NCBI GenBank assembly: GCA_017411835.1
Contig: JAFQPG010000005.1
Location: 52,774 to 116,773 of the forward strand
Source: Ruminococcus sp.
Lineage (GTDB): Bacteria > Bacillota > Clostridia > Oscillospirales > Acutalibacteraceae
Direction of reading: 5' to 3'
DNA: 64,000 nucleotides
Both the position numbers and the translations under genes were made by a program. The notes beneath the pieces are model-generated. The model searched no databases and was not told the DNA's origin. It worked only from the letters and a program-made list of their open reading frames with translations. Of the stretch, positions 13,951 through 31,843 are shown piece by piece; within the stretch, counting starts at the first letter, position 1; each line of letters opens with the position of its first letter.

Positions 13951-15330
13951 TTATATGCCTAAAATTGATGTTGCTATTTCAAAGTAAATAAATACGCAAA
14001 GTGTATCAACGATGGTGGTGATAACAGGGCTTGCTACGACAGCAGGGTCGAAGCCGATTTTTTTAATCAGCATCGGCAACGCACAGCCCAAAAGCTTTGC
14101 AAAAAAGATAGTTAATATAAGGGTCAGCGATACAACAAGAGCAACGGGTATGGTGATGCTTTCGTTGTGTAGCATTAAGCCGTCTATAAGTAACATCTTA
14201 GCAAAGTTTGCAATAGCGAGCACAACACCGCACAAAAGCGATACACGCGATTCCTTGAACATTACTTTAAGTATATCCTTAAACTCAATCTCCTCAAGCG
14301 AGAGTGAACGGATAATCGTAACTGATGATTGAGCACCCGAGTTACCCGCAGTACCCATCAGCATAGGGATAAACGCGGTGAGTACGATACACGCATCAAG
14401 CTGTGATTCAAACGACGTGATAATCATACCGGTGAAGGTAGCAGAAATCATAAGTATCAAAAGCCAAGGAATACGGCTTTTGAAGATTTCAAACGCACCT
14501 AATTTGTCGTATGGTTTATCGGTTGTCGGCGTGATAGCCGCAACCTTCTGGATATCCTCAGTAGCCTCTTCTTCCATAACGTCGATAGCATCGTCGACGG
14601 TGACGATACCGACAAGACGGTTTTCTTTATCAACAACAGGAACAGCAAGGAAGTTGTACTTATTAAAAACCTGAACAACGTTTTCCTGGTCGTCCAGGGT
14701 GTTGACTGAGATGACGTTTGTTTCCATAAGGTCTTCGATAGTGTCGTCCTCGTCAGCAAGCAAAAGACTTTTGATGGTGACAATACCGATAAGTCTTGAC
14801 TGCTCGTCTGCAACGTAGCAGGTGTAGATAGTCTCTTTATCAATACCGGTACGTCTGATTCGTTTTATCGCTTCCTCGACCGTCATTTTCGGTCTAAGTC
14901 TGACAAACTCGGTTGTCATAATCGAGCCGGCACAGTCTTCAGGATATTTTAAGATTTCATTGATTTGTTTTCTGACGTCAGGGTCAGCCTGACGCAAAAT
15001 ACGCTTGACGACATTTGCAGGCATTTCCTCAATAATGTCAACGGCGTCGTCGACATACAGCTCGTCAATGACTTCTTTGAGCTCTGTATCAGAAAAGCCG
15101 TGAATTAAAAGCTCTTGAGTGTCCTCGTCCATTTCGACAAAAGCTTCGGCTGCAAGCTCTTTTGGTAAAAGTCTGAACAGCACCGCAGTTTTTTCGTCCT
15201 GAATGTCTTCAAACACACCGGCTATATCAACAGGGTTCATAGTTGAGAGTATGTCCCTTAATGTCGCGTATCTTTTATTTTCGAGCAATGTTACAATAGT
15301 CTCGAAAAGAGTGACTGTATTCCTTTCCAT
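13951..15330 (-). CDS. mgtE: Magnesium transporter MgtE
   Basis: MgtE N domain (MNPVDIA...), tandem CBS domains, RIPWLLILM, FIPMLMGTAGNSGAQS, DPAVVASPVITTIVD. Confidence 0.97.
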   Translation of the reverse strand: MERNTVTLFETIVTLLENKRYATLRDILSTMNPVDIAGVFEDIQDEKTAVLFRLLPKELAAEAFVEMDEDTQELLIHGFSDTELKEVIDELYVDDAVDIIEEMPANVVKRILRQADPDVRKQINEILKYPEDCAGSIMTTEFVRLRPKMTVEEAIKRIRRTGIDKETIYTCYVADEQSRLIGIVTIKSLLLADEDDTIEDLMETNVISVNTLDDQENVVQVFNKYNFLAVPVVDKENRLVGIVTVDDAIDVMEEEATEDIQKVAAITPTTDKPYDKLGAFEIFKSRIPWLLILMISATFTGMIITSFESQLDACIVLTAFIPMLMGTAGNSGAQSSVTIIRSLSLEEIEFKDILKVMFKESRVSLLCGVVLAIANFAKMLLIDGLMLHNESITIPVALVVSLTLILTIFFAKLLGCALPMLIKKIGFDPAVVASPVITTIVDTLCVFIYFEIATSILGI

Positions 15331-15385
15331 AAATTTATCCTCCTAATTTTATTTAGGCGGAAGTAGAAGACAGCCCTTTAGAGTA

Positions 15386-15478
15386 TCAAAGATGAAAACA
15401 GACGGTGTTACGTACTAACTGACTGTTTTCGATTGTACTTCGCCCCAAAGGGTTGCCGGCAGTACTTCCAGCGTCCAT
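15386..15478 (-). CDS. Putative mgtE leader peptide (30 aa, MDAGSTAGNPLGRSTIENSQLVRNTVCFHL)
   Basis: Translated by hand; AAAGAGG upstream of the ATG; lies wholly within the ~200-nt mgtE leader and overlaps alternative pairings. Confidence 0.5.
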   Translation of the reverse strand: MDAGSTAGNPLGRSTIENSQLVRNTVCFHL

Positions 15479-15535
15479 TTAAATCTCGCCTCTTTCATAG
15501 TTTAGTCCGATGCTTTTAAAACACCAGCACATTTA

Positions 15536-15564
15536 ATTTTATACTATCAAATTATATAAGTCAA
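15536..15564 (-). promoter_or_regulatory. Putative sigma-A promoter of the mgtE leader
   Basis: TTGACT-N17-TAAATT on the minus strand. Confidence 0.55.
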
Positions 15565-15648
15565 CCTTACATTCACAAAAAATTAAGACATTTTCTCTTG
15601 ATTTTGGTGCTCATTTTGAGTATAATTAGTTGACTAATAAATTAGGAG

Positions 15649-16260
15649 ATGAAAATGATGGAAGATTCTTTCGAGAAAAAGCTTAAAGAGTTTTTACCAT
15701 ATATAATTATTATTGGAGCTGTTTATCTGCTCGCGCCTGTGCTGTTGGTACTTACTAAAAGTGCAGGAGTGCTTAACCAGATTATTTATATCGGAGTATT
15801 TCCGCTTACTGCACTTGCTTGCGGTACATACTACGGATACAAAAAGGAAAACGACTTTTTCCTTTCTTTAGTGGCTCCGATTATTTATATTCCGAGTATG
15901 CTTATTTACGGAAACCTCAGAGATTCTGTTTTAAACAGCCTGATTTTCCTTATATCATATTTTATATGCGGATATATCGGACTTACTATCGGCGATATGC
16001 TAAAAGGTAAAAATTCCGGCTCCTCTGATGCAAAAGAAAAAGCAGACAGAACCCACAGCAGAAAAAGAGTTCCACGTAGAGTAAAAACTGTTGACGAAAG
16101 AAAGTCAAGAACAGAAATTATAATGGAAGAAAACGACATCGAAATGCCACAAAGCTTTGATACTCACGAGCACATCGGCGAGGTTGAAACAACCTTCGAC
16201 ACCACAGCAGACGATATCGACTCTATCCTTGCTGAAATTCACAGCAGACGTGAAGAATAA
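15649..16260 (+). CDS. Hypothetical membrane protein (about 4 TM helices plus a charged cytoplasmic tail)
   Basis: Hydrophobic N-terminal 120 aa, basic then acidic tail; own terminator at 16265-16292. Confidence 0.75.
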   Translation: MKMMEDSFEKKLKEFLPYIIIIGAVYLLAPVLLVLTKSAGVLNQIIYIGVFPLTALACGTYYGYKKENDFFLSLVAPIIYIPSMLIYGNLRDSVLNSLIFLISYFICGYIGLTIGDMLKGKNSGSSDAKEKADRTHSRKRVPRRVKTVDERKSRTEIIMEENDIEMPQSFDTHEHIGEVETTFDTTADDIDSILAEIHSRREE

Positions 16261-16373: not shown

Positions 16374-16718
16374 TTACTCGCAGAAGAATACGTCCATGCC
16401 TGTTGTTTCACCGTCAGCAACGATGTAAGCTTTTGACTCTTCTGGCTTAACATATACTGTGTAAGCCTTCTTGCCCTTTACAACCTTCTTAACGTTCTTC
16501 TCGATGTCAGCAACTGCTACTGTAGCGCCGCCGAACTGGATGTAGAGGTCAACCTTAGCAGTTGTCTTCTTTGCAGGAGCTTTCTTAGCAGGAGCCTTCT
16601 TCTCAGCTGTAGCCTTTGGAGCAGCAGCCTTTTTAGCTGTTGTAGCCTTTGGAGCAGCAGCCTTCTTAGTTGTTGTCTTTTTCTCTGTTGTAGTTGTTGT
16701 TTTCTTTGTTGTAGCCAT
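16374..16718 (-). CDS. DUF6465-like protein with a histone H1-like Lys/Ala/Thr/Pro-rich N-terminus
   Basis: KKAAAPKAT x2 and KKAPAKKAPAKK repeats; C-terminal VYVKPEESKAY motif; RBS GAAAGAAGGA. Confidence 0.8.
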   Translation of the reverse strand: MATTKKTTTTTEKKTTTKKAAAPKATTAKKAAAPKATAEKKAPAKKAPAKKTTAKVDLYIQFGGATVAVADIEKNVKKVVKGKKAYTVYVKPEESKAYIVADGETTGMDVFFCE

Positions 16719-31714: not shown

Positions 31715-31830
<116 letters not shown>

Positions 31831-31843
31831 ATAAAGAGAGCTT

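Follow-up and report, generated by a model that had tools for sequence, protein, structure and literature searches.

What controls the Mg2+ channel gene mgtE in a bacterium that has no recognisable M-box? Mg2+ homeostasis in Firmicutes is usually explained by this riboswitch, and the main examples of Mg2+ sensing by ribosomes on leader peptides come from Salmonella and E. coli. The question is raised by a Ruminococcus sp. genome, of which a stretch of 64,000 nucleotides (nt) (contig JAFQPG010000005.1, positions 52,774 to 116,773; hereafter the window) carries mgtE on the minus strand. A covariance-model search that was positive on B. subtilis and L. lactis controls found no M-box (RF00380) in the whole 1.7-Mb genome. 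What the mgtE leader does contain is a short upstream open reading frame (uORF) with its own Shine-Dalgarno sequence (SD), and three helices: H1, which joins the uORF start to the distal uORF; H2, which joins the proximal uORF to a pyrimidine-rich strand beginning at the uORF stop; and H3, which joins that same strand to the mgtE SD. These elements are conserved, their strands are complementary to their own partners in particular, and the leader is associated with genes for Mg2+ importers. The reading favoured here, which is probable but far from certain, is that the leader is a translational attenuator for Mg2+ uptake, in which the three helices compete and a ribosome translating the uORF decides among them.

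A first-pass annotation, made by eye, had described a non-M-box leader of about 200 nt with a ribosome-binding site (RBS), a 30-codon uORF, a hairpin over the mgtE SD and alternative pairings, together with a further stem in the 3' half of the uORF. All of these are present at the minus-strand coordinates listed below, the further stem in the minimum-free-energy (MFE) fold. H1, the best supported of the helices and a competitor of the pairing between the uORF and the anti-SD, had been missed. The features of the leader are as follows.

15564-15536, minus: sigma-70-like promoter of the mgtE leader, from a consensus scan (-35 TTGACT, 15564-15559; 17-nt spacer; -10 TAAAAT, 15541-15536)
15530-15505, minus: 5'-terminal stem-loop GUGCUGGUGUUUUAAAAGCAUCGGAC, from the MFE fold
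15495-15485, minus: uORF SD AAAGAGGCGAG, with a GAGG core (15492-15489) 10 nt before the AUG
15478-15386, minus: uORF MDAGSTAGNPLGRSTIENSQLVRNTVCFHL, 30 codons plus TGA, ATG at 15478, a conserved reading frame
15442-15440, minus: CGA arginine codon, codon 13 of the uORF, with GGG (Gly) before and AGU after it, nearly invariant in homologues
15480-15468, minus: 5' arm of H1, the uORF initiation region UAAAUGGACGCUGG, nt -2 to +11 (RNAalifold, duplex scan, partner swap, alignment-only diagonal test)
15408-15395, minus: 3' arm of H1, the "anti-start" ACACCGUCUGUUUU, uORF nt 71-84, overlapping the 3' arm of the apical hairpin
15430-15394, minus: apical hairpin, GAAAACAG (15430-15423) with CUGUUUUC (15401-15394), loop variable (MFE fold)
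15473-15437, minus: 5' strand of H2, uORF nt 6-42, codons 2-14 (duplex energy, swap tests, pair counts)
15469-15463 and 15444-15436, minus: purine-rich SD mimic, GGAAGUA and GGCGAAGUA, both in the 5' strand of H2
15392-15356, minus: 3' strand of H2, pyrimidine-rich, from the uORF stop to the anti-SD, UCUUUGAUACUCUAAAGGGCUGUCUUCUACUUCCGCC (duplex, swap, fold, pair counts)
15365-15352, minus: anti-SD core UACUUCCGCCUAAA, common to H2 (partner GGAAGUA) and H3 (partner the mgtE SD)
15365-15356, minus: pyrimidine strand UACUUCCGCC, taken from the sequence
15360-15353 with 15346-15339, minus: SD hairpin, CCGCCUAA and UUAGGAGG, covering the mgtE SD
15347-15328, minus: mgtE RBS AUUAGGAGGAU (GGAGG 15343-15339, spacer, AUG 15330-15328), the target of H3
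15330-13951, minus: mgtE, encoding a Mg2+ channel of 459 amino acids (aa) (Pfam: MgtE_N, two CBS domains, MgtE membrane domain)
13945-13912, minus: putative intrinsic terminator-like hairpin 3' of mgtE, AAGCCCUCCG-aaaaa-UCGGAGGGCUU followed by a U-run, read from the sequence

Both promoter hexamers are invariant or nearly so in an alignment of eight congeneric species. From the position of the promoter, transcription would start near 15530, which gives the leader its length of about 200 nt. A 216-nt leader segment folds at -56.7 kcal/mol (z = -2.5 against dinucleotide shuffles) and is 75-82% identical in seven congeneric species. The stem-loop predicted at its 5' end (15505-15530) has a different sequence in each of eight congeners and the same place in all, a pattern that, judged by eye, suggests covariation; its probable role is to stabilise the mRNA at the 5' end, outside the switch.

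That the leader is no M-box, as had been proposed, is borne out by Rfam. At the gathering score the 64-kb window yields only a 5S rRNA, and a scan of 15250-15700 at E<=10 returned nothing but noise (hsp17, glutamine, SNORD43), with neither RF00380 nor RF01056, the Mg_sensor family of the enterobacterial mgtA leader. The annotation's view that the leader is unlike that of MgtL also stands, and an MgtL-type, Pro-rich leader peptide can be discounted: the uORF peptide has a single proline (P10), and this is not conserved (GGRR and AGRE variants occur). Attenuation of transcription of the trp or his type is likewise ruled out, because no intrinsic terminator with a U-tract lies between the uORF and mgtE. 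A scan found no terminator-like site in 15200-15800, and the apical stem is A/U-rich, has a 17-nt loop and is followed by no U-run. Pfam and NCBIfam scans of four leader peptides matched no family, an exact look-up of six in a collection of 15 billion proteins found none recorded as a called gene, and a full-text literature search found no published account of a Clostridia mgtE leader peptide. This leader-peptide switch on Mg2+ importer genes is apparently undescribed, and new relative to the searchable literature.

The upstream reading frame

The uORF recurs in relatives. The mgtE homologues found in metagenome-assembled genomes of Oscillospiraceae and Ruminococcus are 60-89% identical, and among 80 loci with such homologues a start motif (ATGGA[ACT][GTA]C) opening a frame of 10-70 codons was found upstream of mgtE in 72. 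The same criterion picked out none of 240 control segments (three sets of 80, two from inside mgtE and one from the opposite strand). The element can be recognised by an SD followed by ATG-GAY-GCN-GGN-AGY (MDAGS..G..GR[CGA]S), and the consensus of the peptide is MDAG[SG][ST]xG[TN]x(P/G)GR[SRE]. Codons 1-14 are conserved; beyond them the uORF varies in sequence and in length, the peptides having 20-45 aa. Despite indels in this variable part, all eight congeners keep an open uORF of 29-31 codons. Length by itself was not taken as decisive evidence of coding, since the +1 frame is often open as well.

Other features speak more directly to translation. The uORF AUG is invariant across homologous leaders, a GAGG or GGAG core stands 7-10 nt before it in 101 of 120 distinct leaders, and information content upstream of it peaks at -11 and -9. 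At codons 2-4 the first two positions are fixed and the wobble position varies (GAC/GAT, GCA/GCT/GCG/GCC, GGA/GGC/GGT/GGG), a third-position degeneracy that is accompanied by conservative amino-acid replacements (D/E, A/S/T). GGN-CGA lies at five different distances from the AUG (30, 33, 36, 39 and 42 nt) and is nevertheless in frame with it in 90 cases out of 95; the indels, therefore, come in threes. Judged from these sequences, the leader ORF is a conserved reading frame with its own SD, and it is presumably translated in vivo.

Part of the conservation clearly acts at the level of RNA too. Serine in codons 5-7 is always AGY and never TCN. Of 64 homologues, 62 have CGA as the arginine codon, whereas the glycine codon before it is free to vary at its wobble base. 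In the present genome CGA makes up 9.5% of arginine codons, GGG 2% of glycine codons and AGT 11% of serine codons, and there is one gene for tRNA-Arg(ACG). Two more particular roles for the frame were considered and rejected. Stop-codon usage is patternless (TAA 29, TGA 22, TAG 8), which rules out a special stop codon or slow termination, and a programmed frameshift at GGGG-CGA was rejected on reading the leader sequences, in which the fourth G varies (variants CCC-GGG, GGA-GGG and CUU-GGG).

Competing helices and the ribosome

H1 was obtained by RNAalifold from 17 leaders of two clades; in it, the uORF start region AAUGGACGCNG has as its partner CNGCGUCUGUU or CUGCGUACAUU in the distal uORF. 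In a wider set of non-identical leaders from 59 species, the start region (nt -3 to +12) has a good partner in the distal uORF in every species, mostly ending 7-15 nt before the uORF end. The mean duplex energy is -17.2 kcal/mol, compared with -11.5 for shuffles, and z is below -1.64 in 73% of the species. The flanks of the helix co-vary (CACCAUGG/CCAUGGUG, GGUCAUGGAAUCCGG/CCGGCUUCUGUGACC, ACA/UGU). Furthermore, when the last 45 nt of 120 uORFs were aligned with MAFFT and the alignment alone was used, a single antiparallel register emerged, in which uORF nt 2-6 are paired in 78-97%; other registers gave 0.49 +/- 0.11.

H2 joins uORF nt ~6-45 to the 37 nt that start at the uORF stop, with a mean of -28.7 kcal/mol (shuffles, -19.7); in the window the duplex reaches -32.3 (shuffles, -16.2). 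H3 is formed by the 3' strand of H2 with the mgtE SD and spacer, at a mean of -13.7 kcal/mol (shuffles, -9.5), and its spacer pairs change jointly between clades (GUCUUUU/AAAAGAC, AAGUGU/ACACUU, GCCUUG/CAAGGC, GCCUUACC/GGUAAGGC). As an alignment-free test of covariation, each native partner was compared with GC-matched partners from dissimilar species. The native partner was better by 4.6 kcal/mol for H1, 5.9 for H2 and 3.0 for H3; its rank beat the median in 98% of species for H1, 86% for H2 and 84% for H3. Two claims of the first-pass annotation thus hold. The mgtE SD can be sequestered, H3 beating both shuffled and swapped partners; the UACUUCC(GCC) strand does have alternative partners inside the uORF, as the H2 duplex, the swap tests and the pair counts below attest. 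In relatives, all three helices co-vary with their partners.

H1 and H2 cross, and are therefore mutually exclusive. This gives two folds: X, consisting of H1 and H3, and Y, built on H2. In the 17-sequence alignment 95.9% of the cells of fold X and 98.0% of those of fold Y are paired, and in H2 three pairs have changed on both sides; a control in which the partner was slid gave about 40-46%, and 59% in one register of fold Y. In the window the two folds differ by only 0.2 kcal/mol (X, -56.5; Y, -56.7), and among close relatives the predicted ground state flips from one to the other, which, so far as folding predictions go, is the behaviour expected of a switch. Fold X is predicted to lock the ribosome-binding sites of both the uORF and mgtE, and fold Y to leave that of mgtE free. 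The apical hairpin forms in fold Y and competes with H1; in eight congeners its stem is conserved and its loop varies in sequence and length.

Two pairings in the first-pass annotation need to be redrawn. The SD hairpin CCGCCUAA/UUAGGAGG can sequester the SD; it is, however, only part of the lock, since the strand 15392-15352 is paired over its full length in fold X, its partners being the SD, start codon and first codons of mgtE. Similarly, the two GAAGUA copies both pair within the uORF as proposed, but they are not equivalent alternatives, because both lie in one long interrupted helix, H2. Two observations concern the start of mgtE itself. Its first codons, AUGGAAAGGAAUACAGUC (15310-15330, minus), are conserved at the nucleotide level among congeners, and their partner in fold X is GGCUGUC..UUCU in the anti-SD strand, which would carry the SD lock into the coding region.

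The effect of a translating ribosome was modelled by stepping a 28-nt unpaired block along the uORF codon by codon and taking as output the cost of opening the mgtE RBS (-15 to +6). With no ribosome this cost is 9.3 kcal/mol for the 59 species and 4.8 for the window. With the P site at codons 5-15 it rises by 2.7 to 3.5 kcal/mol over the 59 species; closure of the RBS is seen in 88-98% of species at codons 7-15 and peaks at codons 10-13. In the window the cost is 9.9 kcal/mol when the P site is at codons 11-16. Near the end of the uORF the effect is reversed: when the P site is 4-7 codons short of the last codon, the cost falls by 1.3 to 1.7 kcal/mol (73-78% of the 59 species), and in the window it is 2.8 kcal/mol at codons 27-28. 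In most species 50-60 nt separate the uORF stop from the mgtE AUG, so that a ribosome terminating at this stop would cover the start of the H2 3' strand and not the anti-SD. In terms of this model, the conserved proximal codons would be an RBS-mimic segment whose occupancy frees the anti-SD to lock mgtE, and the distal uORF would bear the anti-start, whose occupancy breaks H1 and favours the decoy. (A gap of 50-60 nt between uORF and mgtE is usual; in one clade, comprising L035, L037, L038, L040, L043, L046 and L047, 120-440 nt of extra, apparently structured sequence is found there.)

From these predictions we infer a direction of control, and the mechanism would work as follows. In fold X, H1 would lock the uORF start, and H3, through the anti-SD strand, would lock the mgtE SD, AUG and first codons. 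In fold Y the decoy would be the stretch of uORF codons 2-15, which is rich in purines and mimics the mgtE RBS; by capturing the anti-SD strand it would leave that RBS free. The position of the ribosome on the uORF would select between the two. On the proximal codons it would cover the decoy, so that the anti-SD closes mgtE, most strongly around Gly-Arg(CGA)-Ser at codons 11-14; on the last codons it would cover the anti-start, so that H1 is broken, the decoy takes the anti-SD and mgtE opens. The frequency of loading on the uORF and the dwell time there would in this way be converted into mgtE translation. Frequent loading, or slow transit of Gly-Arg(CGA)-Ser, would keep the decoy covered and mgtE off; a ribosome at the distal codons without a follower would let the decoy capture the anti-SD and turn mgtE on; and with no translation at all, H1 and H3 would lock both start sites. 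Efficient leader translation would thus repress, and low Mg2+, by lowering translation initiation, would de-repress.

The annotation had suggested that either ribosome position or Mg2+-dependent folding toggles exposure of the mgtE SD. The former has gained ground, in that ribosome position alters the predicted exposure, whereas the latter has nothing specific behind it as a sensor; the evidence points to an element that is translated and read by the ribosome rather than to Mg2+-dependent folding.

Several considerations weigh against the attenuator as described. Constraints on the RNA could account for much of the conservation seen in the peptide, given that serine is AGY and that codons 4-9 have to mimic the mgtE RBS. 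The footprint model assumes equilibrium, lets sequences on either side of a bound ribosome pair, and takes no account of co-transcriptional folding, ribosome queues or effects of Mg2+ on RNA stability. Only a few pairs covary within the 17-sequence alignment, and this covariation comes from two clades alone. Both H1 (-10.4 kcal/mol, z -0.6) and the local SD hairpin (-9.9 against -8.1) are weaker in the clade of the window than in the rest of the family. The predicted ribosome-free ground state already has both ribosome-binding sites closed in most species, which makes any route to the "on" state tentative. The proposed sign of regulation is tentative too: should the main effect of low Mg2+ be to slow decoding at CGA, the model would give repression, whereas an importer would be expected to be switched on.

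Spread, target genes and M-box tandems

A sequence-only model (R1) of the SD and the first 17 uORF codons was used to follow the element through other genomes. At E<=0.01 it matches in 137 of the 401 Oscillospirales genomes sampled, which are spread over many families (some 85 have matches below 1e-4), and in 34 of 399 genomes of other Clostridia orders at E<=1e-4. Nearly all inspected matches lie 50-120 nt upstream of mgtE, and in the other orders every one of the 19 inspected precedes mgtE. The present genome has a single copy; its only other R1 match is weak noise (E ~0.007-0.09). The leader is, in short, real and widely conserved, and the anatomy of the switch is well supported.

Five R1 matches precede long ORFs other than mgtE. 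Three of these ORFs were scanned against NCBIfam, and all match models of Mg2+-translocating P-type ATPases; the scores of the two longer fragments exceed the curated cut-offs (TIGR01524, NF011702), whereas the third fragment, which breaks off at 457 aa, stays below them with E 1e-161 to 1e-165. In one genome (G280) the leader stands before both an mgtA-type gene and mgtE. The mgtA-type leader of this genome (L143) has the same GGAAGUA/UACUUCC and GCGUCUGU elements, and the modelled footprint has an effect of +10 kcal/mol on the pump RBS, the design of decoy and anti-SD having been kept.

The M-box itself was found in 40 of the 401 Oscillospirales genomes. In 16 of these 40 it lies 45-260 nt directly upstream of an R1 match on the same strand, the order being M-box, uORF switch, and mgtE or mgtA; the uORF module also stands alone, as in the window. 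The tandem leaders include L130, L140, L131, L136, L139 and L112, and the genomes concerned include G228, G108, G180, G128, G101, G267, G196, G433, G318 and G280. All six tandem leaders inspected consist of an aptamer with its own canonical terminator hairpin and U-run, followed by the uORF SD. The idea that the uORF serves as the expression platform of the M-box is ruled out for this reason: each inspected M-box terminates before the uORF SD is reached, which makes the uORF module an independent second tier. A curious arrangement is that of L145 (G267:C9:105100-108200), where two uORFs of the MDAGS/MESGS type lie ~270 nt apart behind an M-box and before a Mg2+ P-type ATPase gene; the second is unusually long, at 63 codons.

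The link to Mg2+ suggested by the first-pass annotation has grown stronger with these findings. That the same leader precedes two unrelated Mg2+ importers, often behind an M-box, is the main reason to suspect that its signal is related to Mg2+. Most likely, the physiological variable is cytoplasmic Mg2+ or a translation capacity that depends on it. A bolder hypothesis, which can be offered only tentatively, is that the MDAGS..G..GR(CGA)S leader is an unrecognised, class-wide sensor of Mg2+ status in Clostridia. In it the ribosome would be the Mg2+-responsive part, through the rare in-frame CGA after glycine or through the nascent peptide in the exit tunnel, and the leader would form a second tier behind the M-box, or replace it, on MgtE channels and MgtA-type pumps. 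The element as such would show that a large share of gut and rumen Clostridia (about a quarter of the sampled Oscillospirales carry it) steer their main Mg2+ channel by a translated leader of another design, that the same module has been recruited to an unrelated Mg2+ pump, and that it can be stacked behind the M-box, which would let two signals be integrated on one mRNA. The leader would also serve as a compact model: within ~150 nt it combines a uORF that locks itself with a decoy for the RBS and an anti-SD, it makes the conversion of loading and dwell time into expression testable, and it flags one in-frame rare codon as a possible sensing point. More generally, mgtE leaders without an Rfam match are not thereby unregulated.

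Alternative readings and related systems

An unlikely alternative is that the uORF senses demand and reports elongation capacity, for example the speed of CGA decoding or the availability or charging of tRNA-Arg(ICG). Fast transit to the distal uORF would then open mgtE when a cell that is making ribosomes needs Mg2+, stalling at CGA would close it, and free Mg2+ itself would be sensed by the M-box where there is one. Such a role would suit a codon that is nearly invariant, kept in frame and minor in this genome, and it would fit a model in which closure is maximal with the P site at codons 10-13, just before or at CGA, and opening occurs near the uORF end. In addition, a complete M-box, aptamer and terminator together, ahead of the uORF in 16 genomes is easier to grasp if the two modules read different signals. 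Even so, a single arginine codon makes a weak amino-acid sensor, MgtA-type leaders keep MDAGSS and not always G-R(CGA)-S, and there are genomes such as the present one that lack any M-box and in which the uORF is the sole recognisable element of the mgtE leader. The conserved nucleotides might instead form a riboswitch for a metal or another ligand, with a reading frame that is incidental or merely helps to unfold the RNA. The strict conservation of GGACGC, GGNAGUA, GGC and CGAAGU, the constant AGY and CGA codons, the two nearly isoenergetic folds and a leader that folds better than its shuffles would all be accommodated by this idea, which we nonetheless regard as improbable. It leaves unexplained a correctly spaced SD, an invariant AUG, variability concentrated at third codon positions and indels between AUG and CGA in multiples of three (90:5). 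Moreover, the leader has no Rfam match, the conserved stretch sits in helices that exchange partners, whereas a binding pocket would typically lie in a junction or loop, and wherever there is an M-box, another aptamer for Mg2+ would be superfluous.

Small proteins that act in trans on Mg2+ homeostasis are known from enterobacteria (MgtS, MgtR, MgtU), and the uORF product could be of this sort, or the nascent peptide could itself be the sensor, causing a Mg2+-dependent arrest of the ribosome on codons 12-15 when Mg2+ is high. The conserved N-terminus of 14 residues, with its conservative substitutions, and co-transcription with Mg2+ importers lend themselves to either version; an arrest at codons 10-15 would in addition fall where the model closes mgtE and would have the expected sign, off at high Mg2+. 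A role for the product is nevertheless very improbable, as the C-terminal half is freely variable in length (20-45 aa) and sequence, a hydrophobic helix like that of MgtS or MgtR is lacking, no Pfam or NCBIfam family or called gene among the 15 billion proteins corresponds to it, and its conserved residues coincide with the pairing requirements of the RNA.

The preferred attenuator, read by ribosome position, has parallels in well-known systems. In Salmonella and E. coli, ribosome occupancy of a short leader ORF selects among helices in the leaders of mgtA (MgtL; Mg_sensor RF01056) and mgtCBR (MgtP/MgtM). The mgtA leader can act together with an RNA sensor of Mg2+ and works through Rho-dependent termination, and efficient translation of MgtL represses. 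The Clostridia leader resembles these in having a presumably translated ORF before a Mg2+ importer gene and a predicted choice between alternative helices that depends on occupancy. It differs from MgtL in that the peptide is Gly/Ser-rich (MDAGS..G..GRS) and 20-45 aa long rather than Pro-rich and 17-18 aa, with no sequence relation between the two; in that its output looks translational, by SD sequestration, and not Rho-dependent; and in its double RBS lock with crossing helices, its main target, mgtE, and its host, Clostridia rather than Enterobacteria. With the ermC/ermB, cat and cmlA leaders of classical translational attenuation it would share the principle that the position of a ribosome on a leader peptide decides whether the downstream SD is paired. 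Those leaders, however, depend on drug-induced arrest and have nested helices (1:2/3:4 vs 2:3), and stalling opens the SD, whereas in the Clostridia leader the helices interleave (1:3, 2:4, 4:5), a ribosome on the proximal codons is predicted to close the SD, and the target is an ion channel. The M-box regulates the same kinds of genes in Firmicutes (mgtE, mgtA-type) and shares a leader with the uORF in 16 sampled genomes, but it is an untranslated, three-helix metal-binding aptamer of ~170 nt with a terminator, and the uORF module is a separate unit downstream of it.

Among systems described more recently, mgtQ of Salmonella is a translation-aborting small ORF before mgtB, whose translation is reported to remodel an RBS-sequestering structure (PMC8092293). 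The likeness lies in a small ORF upstream of a Mg2+ transporter gene and coupled to such a structure. It differs in that mgtQ is intergenic within an operon and its translation unfolds the RBS, whereas proximal occupancy of the Clostridia uORF is predicted to close it; the Clostridia uORF would also lock its own start codon, and the sequences are unrelated. In the pe20 leader of M. tuberculosis, the expression platform of an M-box directly controls a small uORF, rv1805A, together with Rho (PMC12810186). There, too, a Mg2+-stress leader carries an M-box followed by a conserved small uORF (PMC12810186); in Clostridia, by contrast, the M-box ends in an intrinsic terminator of canonical form, and leaders without any M-box can have the uORF switch as well. 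No relation between the peptides is known. Lastly, the "mgtE motif", a riboswitch candidate with 32 representatives in Thioalkalivibrio only, is likewise a structured non-M-box leader before mgtE, and its P4 stem holds the SD and AUG; it is untranslated, has no leader peptide and is unrelated to the Clostridia element (PMC11109978).

A few other features of the window may be recorded. Divergent to mgtE, on the plus strand, 15649-16260 encodes a predicted membrane protein of 203 aa that has only sub-threshold Pfam matches (DUF5367, DUF2070); this ORF and the mgtE leader have a common intergenic region of 318 nt. On the minus strand, 16374-16718 is an ORF of 114 aa, the N-terminal two-thirds of which form a low-complexity repeat rich in lysine, alanine and threonine (KKTTTKKAAAPKATTAKKAAAPKA...) that, going by its composition, resembles histone H1-like or DNA-binding tails. 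The 5S rRNA gene lies at 31715-31831 on the plus strand (RF00001, 89.5 bits).

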